60,489 nucleotides of DNA from Clostridium sp. CAG:594 (GTDB lineage Bacteria > Bacillota_I > Bacilli_A > RF39 > UBA660), in assembly GCA_000434835.1 (NCBI GenBank), contig FR881489.1, positions 41,750 to 102,238 of the forward strand, given 5' to 3'. Shown here piece by piece: positions 897-15,669 of this stretch (position 1 is the first letter of the stretch; each line of letters begins with the position of its first letter). The position numbers were made by a program, and so were the translations under genes. A model generated the notes under the pieces. It ran no database searches. It was given only the letters and a program-made list of their open reading frames with translations, and was not told where the DNA came from.

Positions 897-2006
897 TTAT
901 TTCTTGGTCTTATTTACCTTTTTCTTTTTTACGTTATCTTTTTTCTTTACTGGAAAATGTATTTTCTTTAAATTTAACTTTGCATTATCAGTAACTATGT
1001 TAGTTGTTAAAACAACCCATGTTATAAGTAGTACTAAAATAACGTATATTATTGCACCTATTTTTCTATCTTTTAATACATAAAAAATGGATGCTGAAGA
1101 AAACAAAATACTTACTGCATATATTATTAAAACAGTTGTTTTCTGTGAGAATTTCTTATTTAATAGTTGATGATGAAGATGCTGCTTATCTGCTTCATAT
1201 ATTGGTTTATGATGAATAATTCTTCTTAGGATTGCAAATAAAGTATCCAGTATTGGAATTGCCAAAATAAGCATTGGAACAACAAGTGATGTAAGAGTTA
1301 CTGCCTTAAATCCTAAAAGACAAACGACTGCTATCATAAATCCTAGAAACATAGAACCTATCTCACCCATAAATATTTTAGCAGGATTAAAGTTAAATAT
1401 TAAAAATCCAAGACAAGCTCCTATCATAATAAAGGCGATAGTAATTTCAAGACTTCCTAAATTATGCATAATAAATGCTAAAACACCTATCGTTATAAAG
1501 AATATCATTGATATACCATCTGCTAGTCCATCTAAACCATCTATTAAGTTAATGCAGTTCATAACAGCAACAATAAACACTAATGTAATTGGATAAGCTA
1601 GCCATCCAAAGTCAAAATAATATCCAAAAAATGATATATCATTTAAAAGTATCTTTCCATAAAAAACTATTATCAAAGCTGCAACTACCTGACCTACTAA
1701 TTTTTCTCTTGCACGAAGAGGCTTTATAACGTCTAATATTCCGGTTATTACCACTATAAAGCTCGCTATTAAAATAGCTAACATCTGAGTACTTTGAGGT
1801 GCAAAAAGCATATATCCAAACAAAAAGCCTAAGTATATCATAAGTCCACCCATAACTGGCATTGGTTTTTTATGAACCTTTCTTTCATTAGGATAATCAA
1901 GTGCTCCAACATGATAACTAATCCATTTTATCATTGGAAAAAGTAGAGCCGTAAAGGCTGCTACTATAATAACTATTTTTAATACTTCAATTATTTCTTT
2001 TTGCAT
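897..2006 (-). CDS. tagO: polyprenyl-phosphate HexNAc-1-phosphate transferase (MraY/WecA/TagO family), wall-polymer initiating enzyme
   Basis: 369-aa polytopic membrane protein with family hallmarks DYPNERKVHKKPMPVMGG and NCINLIDGLDGLADG, and a Lys-rich C-terminal tail. It sits at the head of a glycosyltransferase cluster. Confidence 0.85.
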   Translation of the reverse strand: MQKEIIEVLKIVIIVAAFTALLFPMIKWISYHVGALDYPNERKVHKKPMPVMGGLMIYLGFLFGYMLFAPQSTQMLAILIASFIVVITGILDVIKPLRAREKLVGQVVAALIIVFYGKILLNDISFFGYYFDFGWLAYPITLVFIVAVMNCINLIDGLDGLADGISMIFFITIGVLAFIMHNLGSLEITIAFIMIGACLGFLIFNFNPAKIFMGEIGSMFLGFMIAVVCLLGFKAVTLTSLVVPMLILAIPILDTLFAILRRIIHHKPIYEADKQHLHHQLLNKKFSQKTTVLIIYAVSILFSSASIFYVLKDRKIGAIIYVILVLLITWVVLTTNIVTDNAKLNLKKIHFPVKKKDNVKKKKVNKTKK

Positions 2007-2071
2007 AATAAATCACCACTATTATTAGTTTATCATAAATTAGAAAAACAACCAAATACTATTTTTAAAAT

Positions 2072-2980
2072 TTACTTTGAATGTTTATCGTTAAATCCTA
2101 ATTTTTCTTTTATTATATAGCAAGGTCTATTTAAAATATTACTGTATATTCTAGATACATAAAGTGATATTATACCAAGTTGTAGCATAATAAAACTTAT
2201 AAACAAAATTATTGTTCTATTAGCTAAATTACCCATTAAAATAAAGTTAAGTAATCCAACTATAAGTGCAAGTACACCAATTATAAATACTGATTTTATA
2301 GGTTTAGTTGAAAACGATATTATACCTCCAAGTGAGTATTTAAGGAGTTTAAATAATGACCATTTAGAAGTTCCATACATTCTTTTTTCTGGCATGTAAG
2401 GAACGTATATCGTATTAAATCCTACCCATGAAAACATTCCCTTTAGAAATCTTGTTTTTTCATCAAGAGATGTAATAGCATCACAAACTGACTTTTTAAA
2501 CACCCTAAAATCACTTGCCCCAGGTAGTAATTTAACGTCTGATATTTTATTATTTATTTTATAAAATAATGAAGTTAAAGTTCTTTTTAAAGAGCCTTCA
2601 TCTTCCCTGTTTGATTTATATGCACAGCAGCAATCAAAACTATCATCATTAATTAACTTTTTATACATTAAAATGAGCATTTCTGGTGTGTGCTGTAAAT
2701 CAGCATCCATTATTGCAACATAACTTCCACTTGCATTTTTAAGTCCCGCAAGCATAGCGGATTCTTTACCAAAATTTCTTGAAAATCTAATTACTTTTAC
2801 GTTTTTATTTGCTTTATTAAGTGAGGATAATTTACTATAAGTGTCATCCGTACTTCCATCATCTATAAATATTATTTCATAAGTTATTTTTTCTTTTAAA
2901 AGCGCTTTAGATAACTCACTTTCAAATTCACTTACGTTTGCTGCTTCATTATAACAAGGTACTACAACAGATAATTTCAT
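2072..2980 (-). CDS. GT2 polyprenyl-phosphate glycosyltransferase (GtrB/CsbB/DPM1-like) with two C-terminal TM helices
   Basis: GT-A motifs VVVPCYNE, FIDDGSTDDT and MDADLQH, plus a C-terminal pair of hydrophobic helices. This is the typical GtrB architecture. Confidence 0.85.
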   Translation of the reverse strand: MKLSVVVPCYNEAANVSEFESELSKALLKEKITYEIIFIDDGSTDDTYSKLSSLNKANKNVKVIRFSRNFGKESAMLAGLKNASGSYVAIMDADLQHTPEMLILMYKKLINDDSFDCCCAYKSNREDEGSLKRTLTSLFYKINNKISDVKLLPGASDFRVFKKSVCDAITSLDEKTRFLKGMFSWVGFNTIYVPYMPEKRMYGTSKWSLFKLLKYSLGGIISFSTKPIKSVFIIGVLALIVGLLNFILMGNLANRTIILFISFIMLQLGIISLYVSRIYSNILNRPCYIIKEKLGFNDKHSK

Positions 2981-2996
2981 ATTTACCGCCTTCTTT

Positions 2997-4124
2997 CTAC
3001 TTTCTTTTATTAATTAATTTGCTCCATTTTTCAAGAACTACTTCGCCGCTAAAATCTTTAGCACGACATCTTGCTTCTTTTCCTATTTTTTTTCTTAGTT
3101 TTTCATCAGTAATTAATAAGTCTATTTTACTTACCATTTCGCTAGAATCTCTGTTTTCAATTAAATAACCGCTTTTTCCGTTTTCTATTATTTCGTTTGC
3201 TCCTTGTGCTGACGTATATGAAAGACAAGGAATTCCGTAGCTCATAGCTTCTATTAAAACAAGACCAAAGCTTTCTGTATGAGATGTCATAACGTATATT
3301 GAACTATTTAAAAGTAATTCGTTTATGTATTCTTTATTTTGATATCCGTGAAATATTACTTTATCTCCTAGTTTTAATTCTTCTGCAAGTTCTAGAAGAT
3401 TTCCTCTTTCCATTCCATCACCAACAATGTTTAGTTTCCAATTAGGATGTTTTATACTAAGTGTTTTAAATAACTTAAGCAAATCATCAAAACCTTTTTC
3501 CTTTGATAACCTACCTACTGATATTAAGTTTTCACTATCTAATTTAGATAATTTATTAGGAAGCTTATCAAGACAGTTTGGAATATAAACCGCTTTTTTT
3601 CCTAAGTAATTACCATAAAATTTAGTAAGTTCATTTGAAACCAAAACTAAGTTATTAACTCCCTTACAAGATTTAACTAATGAGTTTATGTATTTCTTGT
3701 TATTATTATGATGGTTATGTTCCCAAGCTATTTTTCTTATTTTTTTAGGAGCAAACTTAGATACTAACATATTATGAACTGTACGTGTAGAAATTATGAC
3801 ATCGCAATCAAGTTTTCTAAGTACGCTTGCAGTTTTAATATATTTAACAAATCCAGTTTCTAATGATTTACCAATTCCCTTAAAAAACATTTTGAAATTT
3901 TTCTTTTCTAAGTAAAACTTCATTTCTTTTTTATTTGGTTTAATATTAGAAATATATCTTATTTTTACTCTTTCATCAATATCAAAAACTGGCTCGTTAT
4001 ATAGTCTATATACAGATAATATTTCAACTTCATATTTTTCACATAAAAGATTTGCTAATGTTGCAACTGCGTTTTCAATACCTCCATAACCTAAATGGAG
4101 TGCTAAAATAGTTACTTTTTTCAT
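2997..4124 (-). CDS. GT4-family (GT-B fold) glycosyltransferase
   Basis: 375 aa. N-terminus LHLGYGGIENAV and C-terminal donor-binding region VMTSHTESFGLVLIEAMSYGIPCLS, typical of glycosyl transferases group 1. Confidence 0.85.
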   Translation of the reverse strand: MKKVTILALHLGYGGIENAVATLANLLCEKYEVEILSVYRLYNEPVFDIDERVKIRYISNIKPNKKEMKFYLEKKNFKMFFKGIGKSLETGFVKYIKTASVLRKLDCDVIISTRTVHNMLVSKFAPKKIRKIAWEHNHHNNNKKYINSLVKSCKGVNNLVLVSNELTKFYGNYLGKKAVYIPNCLDKLPNKLSKLDSENLISVGRLSKEKGFDDLLKLFKTLSIKHPNWKLNIVGDGMERGNLLELAEELKLGDKVIFHGYQNKEYINELLLNSSIYVMTSHTESFGLVLIEAMSYGIPCLSYTSAQGANEIIENGKSGYLIENRDSSEMVSKIDLLITDEKLRKKIGKEARCRAKDFSGEVVLEKWSKLINKRK

Positions 4125-4184
4125 TTATATCACCACCTTAATTATACTAAAGTAATTATAAAACGTCAAAAATTTATAAATTAA

Positions 4185-4219
4185 GTGTAAAGTAAAAGAA
4201 TATGACTCATCATATTCTT
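4185..4219 (-). terminator. intrinsic terminator after the Alg13-like gene
   Basis: 10-bp stem 4196-4205 aagaatatga / 4210-4219 tcatattctt with a 4-nt loop. A T-rich tract follows on the minus strand. Confidence 0.5.
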
Positions 4220-4710
4220 TAAATATTATCTATGTAATCTTTAATTTTCATCCTAAAGTTTTCACTGTTTGATTCATACTTTTTTGGCTTAAAAGTTTTT
4301 ATTTTATCTAAAGCAGCCGATAATCTCGACTTATCATATAGTGCAATAACATAACCTTTCATTTCAAATTCCTTTGTTATTTGCATTTGATGATCATTTG
4401 TGTGCTCTAGGTATTTTTTTAATCTTGGTACAACGATTATCTTTTTTCCTTTTTCTAGGCACTCCGTTATTGTCCCAACACCAGCATGTGTAATTATTAT
4501 TCTAGCCTTATCAATTAGTTTTTCTATTTCTTCTTTGTTTTTAAAATCAAATGATTCCATATTTTTATCTGAAAAAGCTGTATATCCGGTTTGCGCTACT
4601 ACTTTTTCTTTTATGTTACCTTTATCTATTTCTTTTGAAACCATTTTAAGCAATCTTAAAAAAGGTTTATCTTGAGTTCCTAATAATACTAATATCATTA
4701 AAATATCCAC
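4219..4710 (-). CDS. Alg13-like / Cps14G-PssE-type catalytic half of a split glycosyltransferase (Glyco_tran_28_C)
   Basis: 163 aa with ITHAGVGTITECLEKGKKIIVVP (MurG/Alg13 C-terminal domain pattern). Overlaps the upstream Alg14-like gene by 13 nt. Confidence 0.8.
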   Translation of the reverse strand: MDILMILVLLGTQDKPFLRLLKMVSKEIDKGNIKEKVVAQTGYTAFSDKNMESFDFKNKEEIEKLIDKARIIITHAGVGTITECLEKGKKIIVVPRLKKYLEHTNDHQMQITKEFEMKGYVIALYDKSRLSAALDKIKTFKPKKYESNSENFRMKIKDYIDNI

Positions 4711-5168
4711 CCTTCATATTTAGCTTTTGGATATAACTTAAGCATTGAATGCCACTGAACAACAAACACGTCCGCTATAGGATATATTAATTTTCCTGTT
4801 AACGTTTTTGTTTCAATGTTTGCAAATGATTCAATGTAAATAACTTTTTTCTTAAATATTTTAGCAATGTAACACATTGCAACACACGTGTGAGCTCCTG
4901 TTGTAACAATTACATCTGGTTTAAATTTTAAAAATAAAATAAGACTTCTTATCACGTTATATGGTAATACCCAAATATACCTTAATATATGATCTTTATT
5001 ACCGGTTAAAAGATAATCTATTTTACTTTTATATCTTGCTTTAAGCCCAACTGTAGATTTATGTTTTTCTGTTACAAGTTTGTAGTCATAATCTTTAAAG
5101 ATGCTTTTAAGTTGCATAAGTTCTGTTAAATGACCACCCATACTTGATATAAAAATTACCTTTTTCAT
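4698..5168 (-). CDS. Alg14-like / Cps14F-PssD-type membrane-associating half of a split glycosyltransferase
   Basis: 156 aa, MKKVIFISSMGGHLTELMQL... and TTGAHTCVAM pattern. Gene order Alg14-like then Alg13-like, as in cps14F-cps14G. Confidence 0.8.
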   Translation of the reverse strand: MKKVIFISSMGGHLTELMQLKSIFKDYDYKLVTEKHKSTVGLKARYKSKIDYLLTGNKDHILRYIWVLPYNVIRSLILFLKFKPDVIVTTGAHTCVAMCYIAKIFKKKVIYIESFANIETKTLTGKLIYPIADVFVVQWHSMLKLYPKAKYEGWIF

Positions 5169-5227: not shown

Positions 5228-6163
5228 CTATATGTTAGTTAAGACCTTATTAGATAGCCTATACGTTGTAACAAATATATTAGGATCACTTACGTATTCT
5301 AATGCTAACTTACCATTTTTACGAGTTATTATGATGCCTATTGTTTCGTTGTGAAATCTTCTTTTTAAAAACTTATCGGTTAACATCATATACACCTTTG
5401 TTTGCGTAACATCTCTGGGCTTTATTTCACCAAGTTTAAGTTCACATACTATATATCTGTTAAGTTCTGTATTAAACAGTAATAAATCTACGTAATAATT
5501 TTTATTATCATATGAGAGTTTATATTCGCTTCCTACGAAAGTAAAACCAGTACCTAATTCTAAAAAGAAATGTTCTAGTTCTTTTAATATGTATTTTTTT
5601 AAAACCTTTTCACTTATTTTTTCATTGTCATCTATATTTATTAATATTGGGTCATGTATCATATCTTTTATATCCAAACTAGTTTCTTTGTCTGTTATTA
5701 GTTTTATGTGTTTCTTATCTGCATAAGATAATCTATCAAATGATTTTGTTTTTATTTCATTTATTAATCCTCTTACGGATAAATTATTTTGAATACACCT
5801 ATTTATGTAATAATTACGTTCATTTTCATTTTTTAATGGCAATAAATAACGCCAGTGTGACCAAGTTAAGGTTAATTGGTCGCACGATGTGCGACTTTTT
5901 TTAATTATCAAATAAAGTTGTCTCATATTTTTTAGATTTGTTAAATTATAACCTTTTCCATATTCTCTAGATAGTTCACTAGACCACTTCTTTATTAATC
6001 CGTCTCCATATTTAGCTTTTTCTTCGCCATCTTGTGCTTCGATTAAAAGCCTTCCTATTTCATAATAAGTCTTAATGGTTTCTTTATTACTTTCTAAGTA
6101 TCTAACTTTATCATTTACTTCTTTTTCTTCTATTAAATTCTTTATCTCTTTATAATAGTTCAT
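5228..6163 (-). CDS. DUF1016 (YhcG-like) PDDEXK nuclease-fold protein
   Basis: YhcG-type N-terminal helical region (YYEIGRLLIEAQDGEEKAKYGDGLIKKWSSELSREYGKGYNLTNLKNMRQLY, SWSHWRYLL). C-terminal PD-(D/E)xK core YVDLLLFN...IVCELKLGE. The track ORF starts at 6202, but a TATAAT lies inside that extension, and ATG 6161-6163 (MNYYKEIK) has an AAAGGAA Shine-Dalgarno sequence. Start therefore set at 6163. Confidence 0.75.
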   Translation of the reverse strand: MNYYKEIKNLIEEKEVNDKVRYLESNKETIKTYYEIGRLLIEAQDGEEKAKYGDGLIKKWSSELSREYGKGYNLTNLKNMRQLYLIIKKSRTSCDQLTLTWSHWRYLLPLKNENERNYYINRCIQNNLSVRGLINEIKTKSFDRLSYADKKHIKLITDKETSLDIKDMIHDPILINIDDNEKISEKVLKKYILKELEHFFLELGTGFTFVGSEYKLSYDNKNYYVDLLLFNTELNRYIVCELKLGEIKPRDVTQTKVYMMLTDKFLKRRFHNETIGIIITRKNGKLALEYVSDPNIFVTTYRLSNKVLTNI

Positions 6164-6230
6164 AAACTTTTCCTTTCTTAAGTCACTTATTATACGAACC
6201 ATTTATAAAAAAATTTTCGAACAAAAACAT

Positions 6231-6302
6231 AAAATGCACAATATTTTCATAATATTGTGCATTTTTGTATATTTTTTTATGATTTTGCACAATGATTGTG
6301 CA
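6231..6302. repeat. two palindromes built on the same 8-mer TGCACAAT/ATTGTGCA
   Basis: IR1 6231-6265: aaaatgcacaatatt-ttcat-aatattgtgcatttt (15-bp arms). IR2 6286-6302: tgcacaat-g-attgtgca. IR1 is flanked by T-runs on both strands, so it is a likely bidirectional terminator for the 6310..7857 gene. The shared half-site could also be an operator upstream of the DUF1016 gene. Confidence 0.6.
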
Positions 6303-6309
6303 TTTTTAA

Positions 6310-7857
6310 TTATAATTCGTCATCATCTTCTAAAGATAATCTTCTATACTTTGGTTTATTTTTATCCAACCTTTTTTTAGCTTCTTCTAATTCCTTTAAC
6401 TTTTCCTTCCTAGATTTCTTAGGCATAACGTATTCATCTTCTTCTACTCTTTTAATAACTGGCCTATCATCTACGTCATCAATGGAATAATCATAATTAG
6501 AATCTTCATTTTTAATCTTGCCTTTTAACTTATCTATTTTTCTTTGATATTTTTCTATCTTTTTGTCATTTGATTTAAACTTGCCTAATAATTTAAATAT
6601 AATAATTAAAACAAATATTAAGGCTAAGGCTGCTGCTACATAAAACACATATTTAGTATGCATATCTTTTATGTCCGATAACTCCTTATAATATCTTGAA
6701 AAAGTACTATTTTTCTTATCATATAAGTAGAAGCCTTCATCCCCTGTTTCTAAATTTTTAGCATAAACTAAATAATAGTTATCATTCTTATCATATCTAT
6801 ACTTATATCCTTCTATTTTTAAATCATTTATTTTAAAACTTGTCTTAACAAAATCTAAAGGAGTCTTTATTTTTTCATTATTAAGAATAAGTAAATTGAC
6901 TTCTCCACCTTTAGCTTCCATAAAGGATGTATATGAATTTTTATTTTTATCATAGATAAATAGCTTTATGTTGCCTTCATTATCCTTTAATGCTACTAAA
7001 AGTATTTTTGCAATTTCGCTTTGATAAGCACAAACATCTTGGTCTCCTATTTTTATAGTAGTTTCTGTAAAACCAACTGGTATGTTTTCTACTTGCCCTT
7101 TTTTTCTAACAACGGTATATGTTTTACCATCAACTTTCACCTTTACTGGATCTAGTTCCTGAACGGTTAAATTTATTACATATTTCTTTTTTTCTCCATG
7201 TTCTGCTGTTACTATTATCTCTATTTTATTAATACCATCTACAACGTCTACCTCACCAGCACCTGTTATGCTTGCTTTGCTATCTTGTGCTGTTGCAATT
7301 ATCTTTGCTTTTGTTGTATCAACCGGAAGTGTTGCTTGATACTCAGTAATATTTTTATTAAATGATGGTGATAAGTCTGCACCCTCAACCGATAATGAAC
7401 TTAAATTGTTATTTCTACTATAGCTTGCCTCTATCTCTGATTGACTTTTCATAGATACGCTAGCAGAACCTGTGCTTGATAAACACTCATTTGTTGAAGC
7501 ATAATCTAAAACTGATGCATTAACGGGTTTAAATGTTGCACTTCCACTTTGTAATGCGGTAAAAGAATAAGAATACGATGAAGATGACTTACTACCATTT
7601 CCATAATCTACCACGTGAAGCGTACCACTATTTAATCTAACTTTTGAAGAATCATAACTTAGCGTGTACTCCCAAGATCCGATTGAAGCACTACCTGCTA
7701 CCGTAACAGTAACTTTAAAGCTTTGACCAACAACAACGCTAGATGGTGCTGAAACACCTATTCTACAGCTTGCCGCACTAACGTTATCTATTTTAAATAT
7801 AAATGCAAAAAGGAGGATAAAAGCTCCTGTTAATATCTTTTTATATAACTTCTTCAT
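6310..7857 (-). CDS. type I membrane protein: signal peptide, cohesin-like N-terminal domain, cadherin-like beta-sandwich, unknown domain, TM helix, charged cytoplasmic tail
   Basis: Signal peptide ends at VSAAS. Residues ~30-135 (RIGVSAPSSVVVGQSFKVTVTVAGSASIGSWEYTLSYDSSKVRL...ATFKPVNASVLD) follow the cohesin sequence pattern. NNLSSLSVEGADLSPSFNKNITEYQATL...KKKYVINLTV is a cadherin-like beta-sandwich (PF12733-type). TM helix YVFYVAAALALIFVLIIIFKLLG. ~95-aa K/E/D-rich tail ending DDDEL. Confidence 0.75.
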   Translation of the reverse strand: MKKLYKKILTGAFILLFAFIFKIDNVSAASCRIGVSAPSSVVVGQSFKVTVTVAGSASIGSWEYTLSYDSSKVRLNSGTLHVVDYGNGSKSSSSYSYSFTALQSGSATFKPVNASVLDYASTNECLSSTGSASVSMKSQSEIEASYSRNNNLSSLSVEGADLSPSFNKNITEYQATLPVDTTKAKIIATAQDSKASITGAGEVDVVDGINKIEIIVTAEHGEKKKYVINLTVQELDPVKVKVDGKTYTVVRKKGQVENIPVGFTETTIKIGDQDVCAYQSEIAKILLVALKDNEGNIKLFIYDKNKNSYTSFMEAKGGEVNLLILNNEKIKTPLDFVKTSFKINDLKIEGYKYRYDKNDNYYLVYAKNLETGDEGFYLYDKKNSTFSRYYKELSDIKDMHTKYVFYVAAALALIFVLIIIFKLLGKFKSNDKKIEKYQRKIDKLKGKIKNEDSNYDYSIDDVDDRPVIKRVEEDEYVMPKKSRKEKLKELEEAKKRLDKNKPKYRRLSLEDDDEL

Positions 7858-7868
7858 TCTTATACCTC

Positions 7869-9737
7869 CTATTGATTAATACTTCCACTACCTAATAGGT
7901 ATTTTTGTATTAGTAATAAATCTTTAATTGTTACTGCATTATCTTTAGATACGTCTGCTGCCATTTTATTTGCACCACTTAAACTTACGTTTCTAAGTAA
8001 ATGTTTTTGAACAAGTAATAAATCTTTAATTGTTACTGCACCATCTCCTGATATATCTCCATAAACAACCGTTTCAAATGCCATATCATCAATTGATATT
8101 ATATCTCCTGTTGCAATCTTTCCACTTACTTTAGATATCCAATTTTTATTCAAAGTACTTACTGTTCCGCCTTGTTTTTGTAAATAATTCTTAATACCAG
8201 AGATATCTTCTCCTAATCTTACCCCACTTAAATATGAACCATTTAACTTGTAGCCACAATTAGTTACCTTCTTATCAGGTTTTACTACTGGTTTAGCTGT
8301 AGTTGTAGTTGTAGTTTTAGTTGTTGTAGTAGTTTTTTTTGTTGTTTCATTTTTCTTTGTAGTTGTTGTTACATTATTTTTTGTCGTTGTTGTAACAGTA
8401 CTATCATCTTTTTTATTATCAACTTCAGTACTACCATTTGACGTATCATTACCACCTACAGTGTCAGTTCTAGAAACTTTAAACGCTTTATCTGGTCTTG
8501 CGTTATAAACCGGAATAACAAAGTTGTAACTATTTCCTAGTTTTCCGTTTGTACTATAAGAATTATATATGCTAGAAGCCTCAGACTCTGGTGCCATTAT
8601 ATTTGTTTGGTACTGATGAGTATAAGCGTTTCTTACCCTATCTTTAGATACGTTAAACTTTTGGAAATATAATGTATCTTGGCCCTTTGTTATGTATCCA
8701 GAGCCGATAAACTTAGCTCCTTCGGTAATTGCTTTTTGAATGCCATTCCATCCGTTATTCTTTGCATACTCAAGACCCTTTAAGTAGTTATCTGCTCCCG
8801 ATGTTGCTCCTATATTATAGAAATTATAATATCCTTCATAACCAGAGACTTTACCACTTGATGCAGAAGAACCTCTAGTTCCCATTTCTTGAAGTGCACG
8901 AGATGCTAAATGAACAGATGATACGTTAGATTCTTTTGCAGCCTCTATAAAAGCATTAGCATAAGTTTTAGTAACTCCATTTTCAGTAAAGCTTCCACTC
9001 ATAAACGTTCCACTTAAAAGTTTTGAAACAGATGAATCTTCATTAGCATTGTAGGCTAAACTTTGAAACATAAACACGTTTTTTTCTGTTAAAAAATTTC
9101 TTGCATCCATATAGTACTTAACCGCATCTTTAGCAGGTGCATACCAACTTGTACCATCAACTAATAATCCGTTTGGATAAATACTATCTTTAAACATAAG
9201 TGATGGATAGTATTTAGATATTGCACTAGTACCCTTCTGACTTTCTGCTTCTGCTGCATCTTCCCAGTTAAGGCTTGTATAATCGGCCTCAAAAGTCCAG
9301 TTAGGATGTGCGGCATGCAATTTTCTTAAATAAGGTTTATAGCTAGCAGGAAAAGAGCTTATTTTATCTTCAAAAGCTGAATCATCATTATACGAATAAT
9401 TTTTTACATCATACATGCACGCTTTTGCAAGATATCCAGTGTATTCTCTTGCAGCATAATCCATCTTTACCGCATACCAGGTTTGATTACTTTTTCCGTT
9501 GTTAGGACCAGTTGTAGTTTTTATATACGAAACTTCTTGATTTACCGCTACCTTAACATCATCATTTCCATTTTTTACAGCGCCAACCTTATCACTTGGA
9601 GCTGTTCTAAGTGCGCATTTATATTTAGCTTTGTACAAGTCATATGAAAATGCATTTACTTTAGGCATCACAATAAAACATGAAAAAATTGTCAAAAATA
9701 CGATTAATAAACTTTTCTTTTTGCTAAGCATTTTCAT
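7869..9737 (-). CDS. secreted GH73 N-acetylglucosaminidase (autolysin) with Thr-rich linker and C-terminal type-I-like dockerin
   Basis: Signal peptide, then a tentative SH3b-like segment. Glucosaminidase core (SVHLASRALQEMGTRGSSASSGK...YYNFYNIGATSG...GQDTLYFQKFN). T/K-rich linker. The C-terminus carries the duplicated 22-mers GDISGDGAVTIKDLLLVQKHLL and ADVSKDNAVTIKDLLLIQKYLL (dockerin Ca-binding repeats). The next gene starts 11 nt downstream. Confidence 0.85.
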   Translation of the reverse strand: MKMLSKKKSLLIVFLTIFSCFIVMPKVNAFSYDLYKAKYKCALRTAPSDKVGAVKNGNDDVKVAVNQEVSYIKTTTGPNNGKSNQTWYAVKMDYAAREYTGYLAKACMYDVKNYSYNDDSAFEDKISSFPASYKPYLRKLHAAHPNWTFEADYTSLNWEDAAEAESQKGTSAISKYYPSLMFKDSIYPNGLLVDGTSWYAPAKDAVKYYMDARNFLTEKNVFMFQSLAYNANEDSSVSKLLSGTFMSGSFTENGVTKTYANAFIEAAKESNVSSVHLASRALQEMGTRGSSASSGKVSGYEGYYNFYNIGATSGADNYLKGLEYAKNNGWNGIQKAITEGAKFIGSGYITKGQDTLYFQKFNVSKDRVRNAYTHQYQTNIMAPESEASSIYNSYSTNGKLGNSYNFVIPVYNARPDKAFKVSRTDTVGGNDTSNGSTEVDNKKDDSTVTTTTKNNVTTTTKKNETTKKTTTTTKTTTTTTAKPVVKPDKKVTNCGYKLNGSYLSGVRLGEDISGIKNYLQKQGGTVSTLNKNWISKVSGKIATGDIISIDDMAFETVVYGDISGDGAVTIKDLLLVQKHLLRNVSLSGANKMAADVSKDNAVTIKDLLLIQKYLLGSGSINQ

Positions 9738-9955: not shown

Positions 9956-11584
9956 TTGGAAAAGAAAAAAAAGAAATTTAAAAAGGCAGTATTACTACTA
10001 TTTCCTTTATTAATAATCTATTATTTATCTAGCATATACTTCGTAAAAGAAATATATTATTATAATTCGTCAAAAAGTTTTATGACCTACGTTGTTTATG
10101 CATCTATCATATTAACAGCATTATTTATGGTTATATTTACTATAAGAGGTTTTAAATGCATAAAGAAAAATAAAACTAAAAGTTATGTTTGGTATTTTAT
10201 ATTTATTATACTGTTTATTATATTTGAATTATTCGCAAGCATAAACATAAGTAAAATATCTAATTCTTTATCTAAAATAACTAATAAAGAAGCTGGATAC
10301 TCAACTAGTTTAGTTACTTTAAGTTCTTCTAAAATTAATAAAATAAATGATTTAGATGATGAAAACTTAATTGGTATGATAAGTGATACAAACAATGTTG
10401 AAGGTTATAAACTTCCTATGGAAATCGTAAAAAGTAAAAAAATAGATAAAAAAAGTATTGTAAGCTACGACGATTTCACTTCAATGCTTAAAGACTTATA
10501 TAACAAAAAAATAGATGCTATGTTTGTTAGTTCATCTTACGTATCTATGTTTGCTAGTTTAGATGGATATGAAAACATAGGAAATGATACAAAGGTAATA
10601 TATGAAAAAAATAAGAAGGTAATTAAAAAGACGTCAGAATCAAATAAAACGTTAAACGAACCTTTTACTTTACTTATTATGGGAGTTGATTCAACTTCTA
10701 CATCACTTAAGAAAAGTAATTCATTTAATGGTGATACATTAATGCTTATTACGTTTAATCCAAACACTATGAATGCTACCATACTAAGTATTCCAAGAGA
10801 TACTAGAGTACCTATTGTATGTACTAGATCAAAAGCTAAAAATAAAATAAACGCAACGGGAGCTTATGGAGCTGACTGCGTAATGGATACGATAACAAGT
10901 TTTACTGGTATTAAAATTGATTACTGGGTAAAAGTTAACTTTAAAGGAGTTGTATCACTTGTTGATGCATTAGGCGGTGTTGATATAGATGTTCCATATT
11001 CATTCTGCGAACAAAACAGTAACAGAGATTTTGGTAATGATACAATATACATAGAAAAAGGACGTCAAACATTAAACGGAGAGCAAGCCCTAGCCTTTGC
11101 AAGAAATAGACATCCTTGGCCACAATACTGTGGAAAAAAATATTCTAAATACACAAGTAATGATTTTATAAGAGGTCAAAACCAACAACAAATAGTAAAA
11201 GCCATGACTAATAAATTAAAAGATGTAAGAAGTTTATCTCAATTGTATAAACTACTTGATATCGCAGGAGATAACTTAGATACAAACATTGATAAAGATA
11301 CTATGATTACTGGATTTGATACCTTTAAAAATATCATCTTTAATTCTAAAAATATAAACAGTGAAGACTTTGTTGGAACACAAAGACTATATCTATCTGG
11401 TTATGATAATACCATTAATGGTATTTACTACTTTGAGTATTCTACCGAAAGTTTAAAAGAAATTGTTGACGCAATGAAAATTAACCTTGAAATTAAAAAT
11501 CCAGAAATGGACAAAGAATTTAGTTTTTCAATAAATAGTCCTTATGAAGATACACAAATAGGAAAAGGAACTTATAAAAAGTAA
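9956..11584 (+). CDS. LytR-CpsA-Psr (LCP) family wall-polymer ligase with N-terminal TM region
   Basis: LCP core LLIMGVDS...GDTLMLITFNP...ILSIPRDTRV...IDYWVKVNFKGVVSLVDALGGVDIDVP...LNGEQALAFARNRH. TTG start at 9956 after GAGGTG. Confidence 0.85.
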   Translation: MEKKKKKFKKAVLLLFPLLIIYYLSSIYFVKEIYYYNSSKSFMTYVVYASIILTALFMVIFTIRGFKCIKKNKTKSYVWYFIFIILFIIFELFASINISKISNSLSKITNKEAGYSTSLVTLSSSKINKINDLDDENLIGMISDTNNVEGYKLPMEIVKSKKIDKKSIVSYDDFTSMLKDLYNKKIDAMFVSSSYVSMFASLDGYENIGNDTKVIYEKNKKVIKKTSESNKTLNEPFTLLIMGVDSTSTSLKKSNSFNGDTLMLITFNPNTMNATILSIPRDTRVPIVCTRSKAKNKINATGAYGADCVMDTITSFTGIKIDYWVKVNFKGVVSLVDALGGVDIDVPYSFCEQNSNRDFGNDTIYIEKGRQTLNGEQALAFARNRHPWPQYCGKKYSKYTSNDFIRGQNQQQIVKAMTNKLKDVRSLSQLYKLLDIAGDNLDTNIDKDTMITGFDTFKNIIFNSKNINSEDFVGTQRLYLSGYDNTINGIYYFEYSTESLKEIVDAMKINLEIKNPEMDKEFSFSINSPYEDTQIGKGTYKK

Positions 11585-11597
11585 GTTCCTTTTTTTT
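11565..11597 (+). terminator. intrinsic terminator of the LCP gene
   Basis: 10-bp stem 11565-11574 aaggaactta / 11582-11591 taagttcctt with a 7-nt loop, followed by a T-run 11592-11597. The stop codon lies inside the hairpin. Confidence 0.7.
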
Positions 11598-11604
11598 AGG
11601 ATAA

Positions 11605-11613
11605 TGTTATAAT
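11605..11613 (+). promoter_or_regulatory. extended -10 element TGTTATAAT for the O-antigen-ligase-like gene
   Basis: tgttataat lies directly after the LCP terminator, 28 nt upstream of ATG 11642, which is preceded by AAAGGAG. Confidence 0.5.
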
Positions 11614-11641
11614 GTTATTATAGCTAAAGGAGTTCGTAATA

Positions 11642-12907
11642 ATGATTAAAAAACTATTTAAAAACTATGAAAAAATATTTATGGTATTTTTGTATTTACA
11701 GCCATTTTTAGATTTATCCGCAGGCGTTATGCTTCATTTTAATATTAATCTAACAATTAGTTCAGTAATAAGAATCTTATTTATGGTGGTAAGTTTTATA
11801 TACTTAATTTTTTATATAAAAAATAAAAAACTTAATATATACTTAGGATGTCTAATACTTTATTTTATAATGTTTATAACAACGGTTTTAATAACAAAAG
11901 GTTATCCTGCCCTATTTTATGAGGTTAAAAACCTAATTACAACTTACTATTTTGTAGTTATTACACTTACACTCATATGTCTTTATAAAAAGACCCTTTT
12001 TAACACTAAAAACTTACTTATAATATACATAATATATTTAATATGTCTATTTATTCCAAATGTATTTAACATTGGTTTTAACAGCTACTACGAAAGTAAG
12101 ATAGGTTCTGTTGGATGGTTTTTATCCGCTAATTCAGTAGGTAGTATTTTATCTGTTATACTTCCTATACTACTTATTAATATTAAGAAAATAAACTTAA
12201 AAATAATAATACTTGGATTAATAAACTTATATGTAATATTTGGTATAGGAACAAAGGTTCCACCACTTGCGTTTATATTAGTAATTGGCATAAACGTACT
12301 TTACTATGTTATTACGTTAATAAGAAAAAAAGAATACAAGAAATTATCCATTATCTTATTACCAGTTATAATAGTTTTTATAGCATCATTCTTTATATTT
12401 CCAAAAACTCACTTTTATAAGAACTTAGTTATTCATATTAATTATTTAGAAAAAAAAGATAACGGAAAAATAACTACTTGGCACATAATAGATCATTTTA
12501 TATTTTCTGAAAGACTTTCATTTGAAGAAAAAACAAGAAAAGCATACAATAAATCCAGTATTCTTGAAAAGGCATTTGGAATTGGTTATATAGAAAATTA
12601 TTCTACAGATAAAGTAAGGCTTAAAACGGTTGAAATGGACTATTTTGATGTATTTTATAGACATGGCATATTTGGCTTTATAATCTTCTTTTATCCATTA
12701 GTATACGTTTTAAAAGGCATACTAAGTAACAAATATAAGTTAAATAAAAAAACACTTAATATTGGTTTATCAATTATACTTATATTTATTCTCGCCCTAT
12801 TTCAAGGACATATATTTGTAAATCCTGCAAACAGCATTTATGTAGCATTAATATTAGCATTAACCTATAATAAAGGTATGGTATTTAAAAATGAAAAACA
12901 AGCTTAA
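11642..12907 (+). CDS. O-antigen ligase family (Wzy_C-like) polytopic membrane protein, possible TacL-like polymer ligase or polymerase
   Basis: 421 aa with ~10-12 hydrophobic helices and a late extracytoplasmic loop followed by DVFYRHGIFGFIIFF (resembles the HN..L...G motif region of the family). Family call from overall pattern only. Confidence 0.6.
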   Translation: MIKKLFKNYEKIFMVFLYLQPFLDLSAGVMLHFNINLTISSVIRILFMVVSFIYLIFYIKNKKLNIYLGCLILYFIMFITTVLITKGYPALFYEVKNLITTYYFVVITLTLICLYKKTLFNTKNLLIIYIIYLICLFIPNVFNIGFNSYYESKIGSVGWFLSANSVGSILSVILPILLINIKKINLKIIILGLINLYVIFGIGTKVPPLAFILVIGINVLYYVITLIRKKEYKKLSIILLPVIIVFIASFFIFPKTHFYKNLVIHINYLEKKDNGKITTWHIIDHFIFSERLSFEEKTRKAYNKSSILEKAFGIGYIENYSTDKVRLKTVEMDYFDVFYRHGIFGFIIFFYPLVYVLKGILSNKYKLNKKTLNIGLSIILIFILALFQGHIFVNPANSIYVALILALTYNKGMVFKNEKQA

Positions 12908-12923
12908 ATTAAAGCTTGTTTTT
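12894..12923. terminator. bidirectional intrinsic terminator between convergent genes
   Basis: Perfect 12-bp stem aaaaacaagctt (12894-12905) / aagcttgttttt (12912-12923) with a 6-nt loop. The A/T runs in the arms give a U-tail on either strand. Confidence 0.7.
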
Positions 12924-12926
12924 TGA

Positions 12927-13604
12927 TTAGTCCATCTCTACTATATATAACTTATTATTATCATCTTTAATAATGATCATTTTAGCTTCTTTTTCATAGC
13001 CTAAGTCTTCTTTATAATCCCAAGAGATAGTTACTTTATAAGCATCTACTGTTGTTCCGCTTACAGTTGTAGTAGCAGTTCTCTTATAACTTCTACGTTT
13101 AGTAGTAGTTGTAGTTGTTGTTTTAGTATCTTTAATAACAAACGTAGTATTTTCTACCTTAACATCATCTATTAAACTTACTTCCGGAAGCTTTTGAGTT
13201 CTTTTATCTGACTTAACTTCTACGTACTTATAAAACGTACTTCTTGCTTGATCAATAAAGTTATCTCTCATATCTTCCTTAATAAACTGTGTTCCACCAA
13301 TATCGTTTTTAGATAACTTATTACTTAGGGTATAAAAGTCAATTATAAATAATTTTGATATTTCTTTAGCATAATCTTCATAATTTACGTTTTTAGCTGA
13401 TAAAACTTTATCTAACTTTTCAAATTCTTCTTTATAAAGCGCAGTTTCATTTTCATCTAAAGTATATCCATACTTAGATATTGTTTTAATTACTTTTACT
13501 TCATTTTCATCAGTTTTAAAGAAAAACATATAAACTAACATTCCTATAATTAAAAGTAATACTAATACTATAAGGGCAATTAATATCTTTTTACTTTTTT
13601 TCAT
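12927..13604 (-). CDS. membrane-anchored extracytoplasmic protein of unknown function with Thr-rich segment
   Basis: 225 aa, N-terminal TM anchor (ILIALIVLVLLLIIGMLVYMFFF) and a TKTTTTTTTKRR tract. Overlaps the ltaS stop by 14 nt, which suggests translational coupling. Confidence 0.6.
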   Translation of the reverse strand: MKKSKKILIALIVLVLLLIIGMLVYMFFFKTDENEVKVIKTISKYGYTLDENETALYKEEFEKLDKVLSAKNVNYEDYAKEISKLFIIDFYTLSNKLSKNDIGGTQFIKEDMRDNFIDQARSTFYKYVEVKSDKRTQKLPEVSLIDDVKVENTTFVIKDTKTTTTTTTKRRSYKRTATTTVSGTTVDAYKVTISWDYKEDLGYEKEAKMIIIKDDNNKLYIVEMD

Positions 13605-15669
13605 TATTACCTCCTGCTTCTAAATCATAAACAATAATCGAATCAGAAACTTCTAATAATTTATTAGCATACTCTTTATTCTTTTCTATCTCATCATCGT
13701 TTACAACACTATCTTTTAATAGTAAGTATTCTTCCTTTTGTGCATTATAATACATTTTATCAGTTACCCAGTTACCATTAGGAAATACGACAATATTATT
13801 ATCAGTATTAAATATGTCGTGACCTAGAGCATACTTATAATTAAAGTTAAACATATTAGCAAGAGTTGGCATTGCATCATACATACCCATTACTTTATCT
13901 ATCTTTTTATTTAGTAATTTATTACCACTACTATTTTTCGTCCAAATAATAAATGGTACCTTTCTATTTAATTCATAGTTATAATAATCTACATCAACAT
14001 AATTTTCATTAGAACTGTCATAGTATTCATTTTCACCAGATGCTTTACTAGCCTCAAAATCATAGTTATAGAAATGTTTATATTGTTTTTTAGATATTTT
14101 AGCATCATGGTCTCCATATATAGCAATAACCGTATTTTCTAATAATCCTTGGCTATCTAATTCGTTTATAAGCTCTCCAATTGCAGAGTCTGCATAGTGA
14201 ACTGATTTATAATATCTACCAAGCTCAGACCCTTCTAGGTAAGGTAAACTTTTTTCCACAGTATTTCCATTAGAATCTGTTTCAGTATATTTATAATCAA
14301 CTGTGTAATCACCATATTTATCTTCATCTTCCCAAGGAGTATGATTTGATAAAGTAATTAAAGTTACAAAGTAATTATTATTTTTTTCACTTATTTTCTT
14401 TATTTTATTTGTAGCCTGTTTAAAGAACGCTTTATCTGATAATCCCATCCCCATAATATCATCTGAGTTAGAATAATCAAATGAGTCTTTTGCATAAAAC
14501 TTATCATATCCAAGTGTTTGATGCATAACGTTTCTATTCCAGAAGGATGCGTTATTAGCATGCATACTAGCAGTATAATAGCCTTTATTTTTAAATATGT
14601 TAGGCATTGCTTCATAAGTTCTTTTCCAGTAGTTAACAAATACCGTACCAGTTGATGCTGGAAGAAGTGAAGTATTAAAAGTAAATTCTGTATCACTTGA
14701 CGTTCCAACACTTACTTGTGGATAGTAATTTGAGAAGAACAATCCCTCATTTGCTAATTTATTTAAGTTTGGTGTTAACTTCTGATTATTAAATGATAGC
14801 GTCATATTTTGAGTCATCATACTTTCAGCATGAATAACAATTAAGTTTTTACCTTCAAATATGTTCTTATATTCATTCGTTTTATCATTTACGGTATCAG
14901 TTTTTTTCTTTTCATCATAAAATTCCCTAACCGTTTTAGATGCACTATCATAACCAAACAAACTAGTAAACTTAGACTGAGTACTTTTAATTGCATCATT
15001 TAATTGATATACATAGATACCAAATCTTTGAACTAAGTACTCCCTATTCCATTGTTTTTTTAACCTACTATAATCAGATCCACTCATCATTGTAATGGTA
15101 AAAAATGTCATTACTGCACCCAAAATTACGGTGTTTAAGAATCTTTTTTTAGGTCTTTCAAGTTTTTCAACTTTAGAATAATACTTTTTCTTTTTTAAAA
15201 TAAAGTGAATAATTGGAAGTGCTATTACAGGAAATATTAATATAACATCTTTAAGATGAATTAATCCTGTTACAATATCCCCATTCATATCTCCTAAAAA
15301 TGATGCTGTTGATAAAAGTGAAAATGATGCAAACGAAACATAATTCTCATAATATACAGCATTTATAATACAAGCTGCCGTCATAACTATCGTAAGTGGC
15401 ATTAATACTCTTATTTGTTTCTTTGGTTTTAAAAGATATGCAAATGAACCAGTAATTAGTATAAATGCTAAATCTGATATGATACCTTTAAAACTAAATA
15501 AATTTCCCATTGTAACTATTCTAAGTAACCAAGAATTAAATAAATTTATTAAAACAAAAGTTATAAAAAGTACATTAGTTTTTATGTATCTTATTAAACT
15601 TATTTCTTTTACTCTTGTTTTTATTTTTAAATATGTCTGTTTTAAAAAGTTTTGTATTTTATCTTTCAT
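13591..15669 (-). CDS. ltaS: lipoteichoic acid synthase family protein (LtaS-type sulfatase-fold phosphoglycerol transferase)
   Basis: 692 aa. Five N-terminal TM helices plus an extracellular sulfatase-like domain (NLIVIHAESMM, GTSSDTEFT, LSNHTPW, YGDHD). Confidence 0.85.
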   Translation of the reverse strand: MKDKIQNFLKQTYLKIKTRVKEISLIRYIKTNVLFITFVLINLFNSWLLRIVTMGNLFSFKGIISDLAFILITGSFAYLLKPKKQIRVLMPLTIVMTAACIINAVYYENYVSFASFSLLSTASFLGDMNGDIVTGLIHLKDVILIFPVIALPIIHFILKKKKYYSKVEKLERPKKRFLNTVILGAVMTFFTITMMSGSDYSRLKKQWNREYLVQRFGIYVYQLNDAIKSTQSKFTSLFGYDSASKTVREFYDEKKKTDTVNDKTNEYKNIFEGKNLIVIHAESMMTQNMTLSFNNQKLTPNLNKLANEGLFFSNYYPQVSVGTSSDTEFTFNTSLLPASTGTVFVNYWKRTYEAMPNIFKNKGYYTASMHANNASFWNRNVMHQTLGYDKFYAKDSFDYSNSDDIMGMGLSDKAFFKQATNKIKKISEKNNNYFVTLITLSNHTPWEDEDKYGDYTVDYKYTETDSNGNTVEKSLPYLEGSELGRYYKSVHYADSAIGELINELDSQGLLENTVIAIYGDHDAKISKKQYKHFYNYDFEASKASGENEYYDSSNENYVDVDYYNYELNRKVPFIIWTKNSSGNKLLNKKIDKVMGMYDAMPTLANMFNFNYKYALGHDIFNTDNNIVVFPNGNWVTDKMYYNAQKEEYLLLKDSVVNDDEIEKNKEYANKLLEVSDSIIVYDLEAGGNNEKK

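Follow-up and report, generated by a model that had tools for sequence, protein, structure and literature searches.

The placement of potentially lethal wall hydrolases is a central question of Gram-positive cell-wall biology, and the known means of positioning these enzymes are wall-binding repeats (LysM, SH3b, CWB), a transmembrane (TM) anchor of their own and intramembrane partners (SagB-SpdC, FtsEX). In S. aureus, the membrane partner SpdC positions the GH73 glucosaminidase SagB for the cutting of glycan strands near the membrane (bioRxiv 10.1101/2020.05.21.109470). SagB is itself anchored by a TM helix, and its contact with SpdC, a polytopic protein of CAAX-protease-like type, is made within the membrane. 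Other glycoside hydrolases are held by cohesin-dockerin pairs, the glycoside-hydrolase toxin complexes of C. perfringens (2w1n) being a non-cellulosomal case. Such pairs are also established in the amylosome of R. bromii (PMC4611034, PMC5814915), where the dockerin attaches the enzyme to the cell surface in a calcium-dependent manner (PMC5814915). For R. bicirculans, a single sentence (in PMC4611034, citing Wegmann et al. 2014) mentions a lone dockerin and a lone cohesin, "associated with a GH73 enzyme". We describe here a pair of adjacent genes in 60,489 nucleotides (nt) of DNA from Clostridium sp. CAG:594 (contig FR881489.1, positions 41,750 to 102,238; this whole stretch is the window below), which encode a dockerin-bearing GH73-like hydrolase and a membrane-anchored scaffold with a cohesin-like tip. 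The reading that we favour, with a probability of about 0.65, is that the dockerin of the hydrolase would bind the tip of the adjacent scaffold. The features on which this reading depends are the following (aa, amino acids; AF2, AlphaFold2).

9737..7869, minus strand: gene 1, the hydrolase, 622 aa (open reading frame, ORF)
7858..7868, minus strand: intergenic spacer of 11 nt between genes 1 and 2
7857..6310, minus strand: gene 2, the membrane scaffold, 515 aa (ORF)
7893..8063, minus strand: type I dockerin, residues 559-615 of the hydrolase (Pfam PF00404)
7438..7773, minus strand: cohesin-like tip domain, about 110 aa, residues 29-140 of the scaffold, the proposed dockerin receptor (Pfam, AF2, Foldseek, co-variation)

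As with C. perfringens GH84C and R. bromii, a secreted glycoside hydrolase bears a type I-like dockerin and a second protein carries the β-sandwich, cohesin-like in the present case, and no cellulose-degrading system is involved. It differs from them in that the enzyme would target the cell's own peptidoglycan and not host or dietary glycans, in the compactness of the tip (~110 aa), which is sub-threshold for Pfam, in the anchoring of the scaffold, for which a TM helix of the protein itself takes the place of sortase or SLH, and in the strict 1:1 two-gene operon. With SagB-SpdC it has in common a homologous GH73 enzyme (E ~3e-19) and a membrane-protein partner, a proposed one in the present case, but here the enzyme would be soluble after export, the proposed contact is an extracellular dockerin-cohesin one, and the partners are unrelated. 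Like the cellulosomal anchoring scaffoldins (SdbA and OlpB of C. thermocellum, with type I/II cohesins), the scaffold is a protein with a cohesin-like module that is proposed to fix a dockerin enzyme to the envelope, and the dockerin itself resembles the cellulosomal ones in the symmetry of its two repeats, whose recognition residues occupy positions 10, 11, 17 and 18. Unlike SdbA and OlpB, the scaffold has only one cohesin-like module, with one proposed client, is anchored by a TM helix where those use SLH, and has a context of wall-polymer biosynthesis without carbohydrate-binding modules or plant-wall enzymes. The R. bicirculans case, as far as its one-sentence mention goes, follows the same idea, with one dockerin, one cohesin and a link to GH73 in a non-cellulolytic gut Firmicute. 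That sentence is the only link between a dockerin and a peptidoglycan hydrolase or GH73 enzyme found in the literature searched. In that literature we found the R. bicirculans case analysed neither for distribution or co-evolution nor for function, and we found no account of the scaffold family, be it of the membrane-anchored architecture, of where the family occurs or of the co-evolving classes. A first-pass annotation of the window had regarded the arrangement as uncharacterised for an autolysin, which agrees with the literature searched as far as the family is concerned and has to be qualified by the brief mention of R. bicirculans.

The C-terminal module of the hydrolase is, as judged by profile and by calcium-ligand residues, a bona fide type I dockerin. 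It matches Pfam Dockerin_1 (PF00404) over profile positions 1-57 of 57, with an E-value of 1.1e-13 and 51.6 bits against a cut-off of 22.9, and it contains two 22-residue segments (residues 559-580 and 593-614). Both are F-hand repeats with the calcium-ligand pattern D-x-S-x-D...T..D, that is, D-S-D-T-D at positions 1, 3, 5, 9 and 12, and in 62-63 of 63 non-redundant relatives Asp occupies ligand positions 1, 5 and 12. The accepted recognition positions of dockerins are 10, 11, 17 and 18 (PMC4081043). These residues are identical in the two repeats (I-K at 10-11, Q-K at 17-18), and positions 10, 11 and 17 are the same in both repeats in 55 of the 63 dockerins; such a symmetry is, at the level of sequence, the pattern expected of a functional type I dockerin. 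Solved dockerins are matched in the PDB (8x39 at 1.4e-10, 2ccl at 1.3e-7), and the top match, 8x39/8x3a, which extends over two stretches, is non-cellulosomal and annotated "Serine protease".

On the scaffold side, the tip matches Pfam Cohesin (PF00963) at 23.0 bits (E=1e-4), over profile positions 10-67 of 139 only. A HMMER scan of 1.84 billion representatives for the tip-domain family, clustered at 50% identity, yielded at least 256 clusters, nearly all with the tip at residues ~23-150 of proteins of 430-640 aa and of the same architecture; among 102 members compared with Pfam, 31 match Cohesin (E<=0.01; best 8.8e-8) and 35 match BatD. The sequences of the PDB retrieved by the family profile are mostly cohesins, which account for 11 of the 13 best matches. 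They include 3l8q at 3.7e-5 and 2y3n, 4u3s, 1g1k, 6kg8, 5g5d and 2vn5 at 4e-3 to 8e-3, the NagJ cohesin of C. perfringens ranking lower in the list; the alignments to cohesins are mostly limited to the first ~55 residues. The AF2 model of the tip, built from 126 sequences, has 9-10 strands (pLDDT 95.8, pTM 0.87). The Foldseek match with the highest TM-score in the PDB (0.73) is to a non-cellulosomal cohesin, that of C. perfringens GH84C (2w1n). Further cohesins are retrieved (5nrm, 4u3s, 3ghp, 3l8q), many cellulosomal ones reach TM-scores of 0.64-0.69, and cohesins are the commonest class among the matches with E<=1e-3.

The two genes are found together throughout the relatives. When each species was represented by one genome, the scan found 31 loci in metagenome-assembled genomes (MAGs) of uncultured gut Bacilli, including Ca. 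Aphodocola, the taxonomic range being that of the labels in the MAG records; a metagenome scan with a 26-member subset of the alignment added 80 loci. Loci are designated by L numbers below. In all 30 species-level loci with enough upstream sequence, an ORF for a GH73-dockerin protein (573-673 aa) ends 5-11 nt ahead of the scaffold ORF, and the arrangement is identical in four distant family members (30-40% identity). In 108 of the 111 testable loci, 71-108 nt separate the end of a complete dockerin from the beginning of the tip, which puts the dockerin at the end of the preceding ORF, and a GH73-like domain is present in each of the 104 upstream ORFs of sufficient length. The three exceptions are L099, with less than 400 nt of upstream sequence, and L052 and L068, whose dockerin has a single repeat. 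In these last two (2037-4112 in each), the upstream glycoside hydrolase ORF ends in a lone F-hand repeat (…GDTSGDGKVTILDLLQVRKHINGDKKL), a natural half-dockerin, and stands directly before the scaffold gene. In the hydrolases of L014 (7932-11545) and L031 (8792-12014), a cadherin-like domain precedes the dockerin. The records of L004, L018, L020, L021, L023, L027, L028 and L031 are labelled "uncultured Muribaculaceae" or "Clostridium sp." despite a Bacilli-type locus, and these contigs are probably mislabelled or mis-binned.

Indirect support for binding comes from the joint variation of dockerin and tip. Among the close genomes, a tip of type A (…WEYTLSYD…HVVDYGNGS…) is always paired with the dockerin …TIKDLLLVQK… (IK/QK), and a tip of type B (…WYYVLSYD…KVVGVIGDS…), present in 9 genomes, always with …SVVDLLYIKK… (VV/KK); L027 is a hybrid in its tip and in its dockerin. 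In L010, the scaffold outside the tip has 88% identity to that of the window, yet both the tip (47%) and the dockerin (49%) belong to the other class. In L014 (UMGS957), the flanking genes and the scaffold C-terminus are nearly identical to those of the window and the GH-dockerin gene and the tip are wholly different, the tip being too divergent for detection by the hidden Markov model of the family; judged from these sequences, L014 is a whole-cassette replacement between close strains. Because of these two swaps, the tip appears to travel with the dockerin of the neighbouring gene and not with the remainder of its own protein. The mirror-tree distance correlations (Spearman, 111 pairs) agree with this: they amount to 0.65 for tip and dockerin, against 0.56 for the tip and the rest of the scaffold and 0.47 for the dockerin and its own enzyme, and the partial correlation of tip and dockerin, with the scaffold remainder controlled, is 0.47. 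Residue co-variation was computed on 63 non-redundant pairs as mutual information with average product correction. The dockerin-tip block is the strongest between modules, within-scaffold blocks included, and the dockerin columns with the strongest coupling to the tip, ranks one to four, are positions 17 and 10 of both repeats, with position 11 of both in the top ten. Six of the ten most tip-coupled columns thus fall within the recognition set 10, 11, 17 and 18 (P=4.8e-5), against none of ten in the control ranking with the cadherin-like domain and one of ten with the juxtamembrane domain; the high-entropy linker columns 31, 37, 38 and 40 of the dockerin are not top-ranked.

Against the docking of the hydrolase onto the tip, several points have to be weighed. 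The Cohesin score of the tip lies under the Pfam cut-off of 24.1, and the BatD/DUF11-like PF13584 outscores it there with 28.6 bits, over its own cut-off; Foldseek gives comparable E-values for TRAP-beta, CLIPPER, CARDB and complement MG domains; the tip is 30-60 aa shorter than the classical cohesins (~110 aa against ~140-170 aa); its TM-scores are only 0.4-0.6 when normalised to the target; and the hhalign comparison of the tip profile with CipA Coh2, one classical cohesin, is weak (P=6.5e-4 over 41 columns). The strongest co-varying tip column, Y95, may be core-facing or indel-linked, and Y97 may be core-facing. The window holds only one dockerin and only one tip domain of this kind, a uniqueness that covers 60 kb only, and a further cohesin is possible elsewhere in the genome. 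Furthermore, the DNA distance between dockerin and tip is under 500 bp, and shared recombination tracts could therefore yield class-level co-variation without binding. The tip is accordingly best described as a compact, distant relative of the cohesins whose formal membership is borderline: the cohesin pattern noticed in the first-pass annotation is in line with the profile and structural matches in the PDB, which are best to cohesins, and falls short of the Pfam cut-off. Enzyme and scaffold could be co-transcribed for one wall-remodelling process with no docking between them, the dockerin binding another cohesin, a wall glycopolymer or itself, and the tip binding wall material or serving as a spacer. 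The borderline tip with its higher BatD score, the CARDB, TRAP-beta and MG neighbours in the structure search and the restriction of the view to 60 kb of the genome all agree with such an arrangement, and to our knowledge many non-cellulosomal dockerins are without a known partner. We nevertheless hold it to be unlikely, because the recognition positions of the dockerin co-vary with the tip and not with the other scaffold domains, because the matched classes are exchanged as a cassette, and because the tip follows the dockerin more closely than its own protein.

The same co-variation could be put down to linkage, gene 1 3' end and gene 2 5' end forming a surface-exposed hypervariable cassette under diversifying selection by phage or host immunity. 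The adjacency of dockerin and tip in the DNA, and the two cassette replacements (L010 and L014) that break just past the tip domain, are what such an artefact would produce. It predicts, however, the coupling of all variable dockerin columns, and the linker columns named above are not among the top ones; recognition positions 10, 11 and 17 rank top in both repeats, which change in concert, and the pairing is kept at 30-45% identity, where linkage is irrelevant. Linkage alone does not explain these coupled recognition positions, the uncoupled variable linker columns or the distant pairing, and we regard it as very improbable. A scaffold acting as regulator or inhibitor would bind the hydrolase, by way of the dockerin or in some other manner, and would keep it inactive or release it in response to a signal, with the juxtamembrane domain or the conserved tail in the cytoplasm as the sensor. 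The tail is conserved in the close clade, the juxtamembrane domain is large, conserved and of unmatched fold, and membrane partners control other wall hydrolases, SagB-SpdC being an example (bioRxiv 10.1101/2020.05.21.109470); on the other hand, no sensing or signalling module is evident in the sequence, and the tail of the wider family is only a Lys-rich stretch. We consider such a scaffold quite unlikely as an alternative, and it is compatible with docking and not opposed to it, a regulatory role through the conserved tail or the juxtamembrane domain being possible. The docking of the hydrolase onto the scaffold, as put forward in the first-pass annotation, thus draws on the synteny, on the fold match of the tip and on the co-variation of the recognition positions; the co-occurrence of the two genes in relatives, on which that proposal also turned, is found in 30 of 30 species-level genomes and in 108 of 111 loci. 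The proposal is supported only in part: the membership of the tip among the cohesins is borderline, the binding itself is putative, and its further idea, that the cytoplasmic tail could couple the enzyme to intracellular partners, is conjectural.

The remaining features of the two proteins are listed below, those of the hydrolase before those of the scaffold.

8508..9146, minus strand: GH73-like catalytic domain, residues ~198-410 (phmmer against the PDB)
8268..8450, minus strand: Thr/Lys-rich low-complexity linker, residues ~430-490 (sequence)
8073..8267, minus strand: pre-dockerin module, about 65 aa, residues 491-555 (position conserved in relatives)
7165..7404, minus strand: cadherin-like β-sandwich spacer, residues 152-231 (Pfam PF12733, E=5.3e-8, above the gathering cut-off)
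6652..7164, minus strand: β-rich juxtamembrane domain, about 170 aa, residues 232-402 (AF2, pLDDT 94.4)
6583..6651, minus strand: TM helix, residues ~403-425 (hydrophobic run YVFYVAAALALIFVLIIIFKLLG, then a Lys-rich segment)
6313..6582, minus strand: cytoplasmic tail, ~90 aa, K/E/D-rich (sequence)

The hydrolase begins with a cleavable signal peptide (residues 1-29, ending VNA|FS) and has no TM anchor; an N-terminal domain of about 90 aa, the catalytic domain, the linker, the pre-dockerin module and the type I dockerin follow. The N-terminal domain of the relatives' hydrolases matches Pfam SH3_3, which the Pfam scan does not detect in the hydrolase of the window itself, and the pre-dockerin module has no Pfam match. 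As far as sequence comparison goes, the catalytic domain is clearly homologous to the solved GH73 glucosaminidases: in the phmmer search, residues 198-410 match SagB (6fxp, E=2.8e-19; 6u0o, 3.2e-19), Atl (6fxo, 7.5e-18) and AtlE (4pi7, 4.7e-14). The Glu E284 of the motif ALQE(284)MG is aligned with the Glu of the LLETG motif of SagB, and we take it to be the catalytic Glu, the general acid of GH73; its equivalent is invariant in the 99 complete partner enzymes out of 99. The Pfam GH73 model PF01832 has no match to the hydrolase at E<=1, and the GH73 assignment is therefore made through PDB and NCBIfam homology. An identity as SagB equivalog was considered and rejected: the NCBIfam SagB model (NF052642) is matched with E=1.3e-25 and 90.1 bits, far under the family cut-off of 425, the enzyme has no TM anchor of its own, and its partner is unrelated to SpdC. 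An origin as phage endolysin was likewise rejected in view of the signal peptide, the conserved chromosomal wall-polymer context and the absence of adjacent phage genes.

The scaffold has in succession a signal peptide (ending VSA|AS), the cohesin-like tip, the cadherin-like β-sandwich, the β-rich juxtamembrane domain, the TM helix and the charged tail. The Cadherin-like domain is matched in 102 of 102 family members, and the architecture is kept in all of these 102 diverse members. For 14 family members, the names found in the databases are uninformative ("uncharacterized integral membrane protein" and "cadherin-like beta sandwich domain-containing protein"). In the tip, C31 and C125 (7483-7767) are invariant in the close clade, in types A and B alike, and are not shared by the wider family; in the close-clade tip they may form a disulfide that stabilises it. 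The juxtamembrane domain has no structural neighbour in the PDB (Foldseek, best E=0.15, TM-score <0.2), and its model may represent an undescribed fold; repeated hairpin-like motifs of the form "...G..G.Y.YD....F..Y" are seen in it. In the tail, 31 of 90 positions are invariant across five aligned close orthologues, and the identity over 28 genomes is 43-98%; the tail of the wider family is merely a Lys-rich stretch. The anatomy of the pair is thus essentially that read in the first-pass annotation, whose 622-aa glucosaminidase with a terminal duplicated type I dockerin, 515-aa type I membrane protein beginning 11 nt downstream, cadherin-like β-sandwich, TM helix and charged tail are all recovered at the coordinates and scores given above, and whose GH73 identity is sustained by the homology to SagB, Atl and AtlE and not by Pfam PF01832.

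The 11-nt gap, an AGGAGG ribosome-binding site that overlaps the TAG stop of gene 1 and lies 7 nt ahead of the ATG of gene 2, and a terminator 3' of gene 2 make the two genes a two-gene operon. It is divergent from an LCP-family gene at 9956-11584. Two features lie just downstream.

6231-6265, minus strand: hairpin terminator with a perfect 15-bp stem and a T-run, 3' of gene 2
5228-6202, minus strand: YhcG/DUF1016 PDDEXK-nuclease gene, between the scaffold and glycosyltransferase genes, just past the hairpin

The pair is surrounded in the window, which has ~26% G+C, by a wall-glycopolymer cluster (897-5168 and 9956-15669) that contains genes for GT4 (MraY/WecA-like), GT2, GT1 and split Alg13/Alg14-like transferases, an LCP ligase, an O-antigen-ligase-like protein and an LtaS-type sulfatase-fold enzyme. 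In distant relatives too, the pair usually adjoins wall-glycopolymer genes (GT4, GT2, O-antigen-ligase-like). The nuclease gene looks inserted, because in the distant relatives L032, L034 and L036 the GT2/GT4 genes come straight after the scaffold gene. Given this cluster, the organism is clearly wall-building, although the label Tenericutes or Mollicutes is attached to some related MAGs. A 225-aa ORF on the minus strand (12927-13604), conserved in L014, has an N-terminal TM segment and a poly-Thr run, and no Pfam match.

In the model that we propose, the product of gene 1, an active GH73 N-acetylglucosaminidase, would leave the cell by way of Sec. The type I dockerin at its C-terminus would bind, by means of two calcium-binding F-hand repeats and in a calcium-dependent manner, the outer cohesin-like β-sandwich of the gene 2 product, a single-pass protein whose cadherin-like and juxtamembrane β domains would form a stalk. 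The hydrolase would thereby be retained on the cell that produces it, at a distance from the membrane set by the two β domains and by the flexible linker of the enzyme, and would trim the glycan strands of the peptidoglycan during wall growth or cell separation. The physical binding and its calcium dependence, the role as ruler or tether and the physiological process served are what we infer, as would be any role of the cytoplasmic tail. The enzyme-anchor pair would be self-contained and serve the cell's own wall, as a functional analogue of SagB-SpdC. More tentatively, and with chances that we place somewhat short of even, a large unnamed family of Gram-positive gut bacteria (at least 256 clusters at 50% identity) may use a one-enzyme "autolysosome", in which a minimal membrane-anchored cohesin on a rigid stalk would hold a GH73 dockerin enzyme at a fixed height, and in which lock-and-key cassettes (IK/QK, VV/KK, AS/KN and others) would be swapped as a unit between close strains.

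In conclusion, our observations extend a known type of interaction rather than reveal a new one, and the pairing of dockerin and tip points to an uncharacterised leash for a wall hydrolase, in an unannotated scaffold family that abounds in gut metagenomes of humans and animals. The matched allelic classes could supply compact orthogonal binding pairs for protein engineering. If the model is true, a dockerin-cohesin leash to a membrane stalk would be a new principle for the positioning of wall hydrolases, and would give an extracellular lock-and-key answer to the problem that S. aureus meets with SagB-SpdC. The interchangeable cassettes would then lead to a strain-specific pairing of enzyme and anchor, and the biology of cohesins and dockerins would reach beyond nutrient acquisition to the cell's own envelope.

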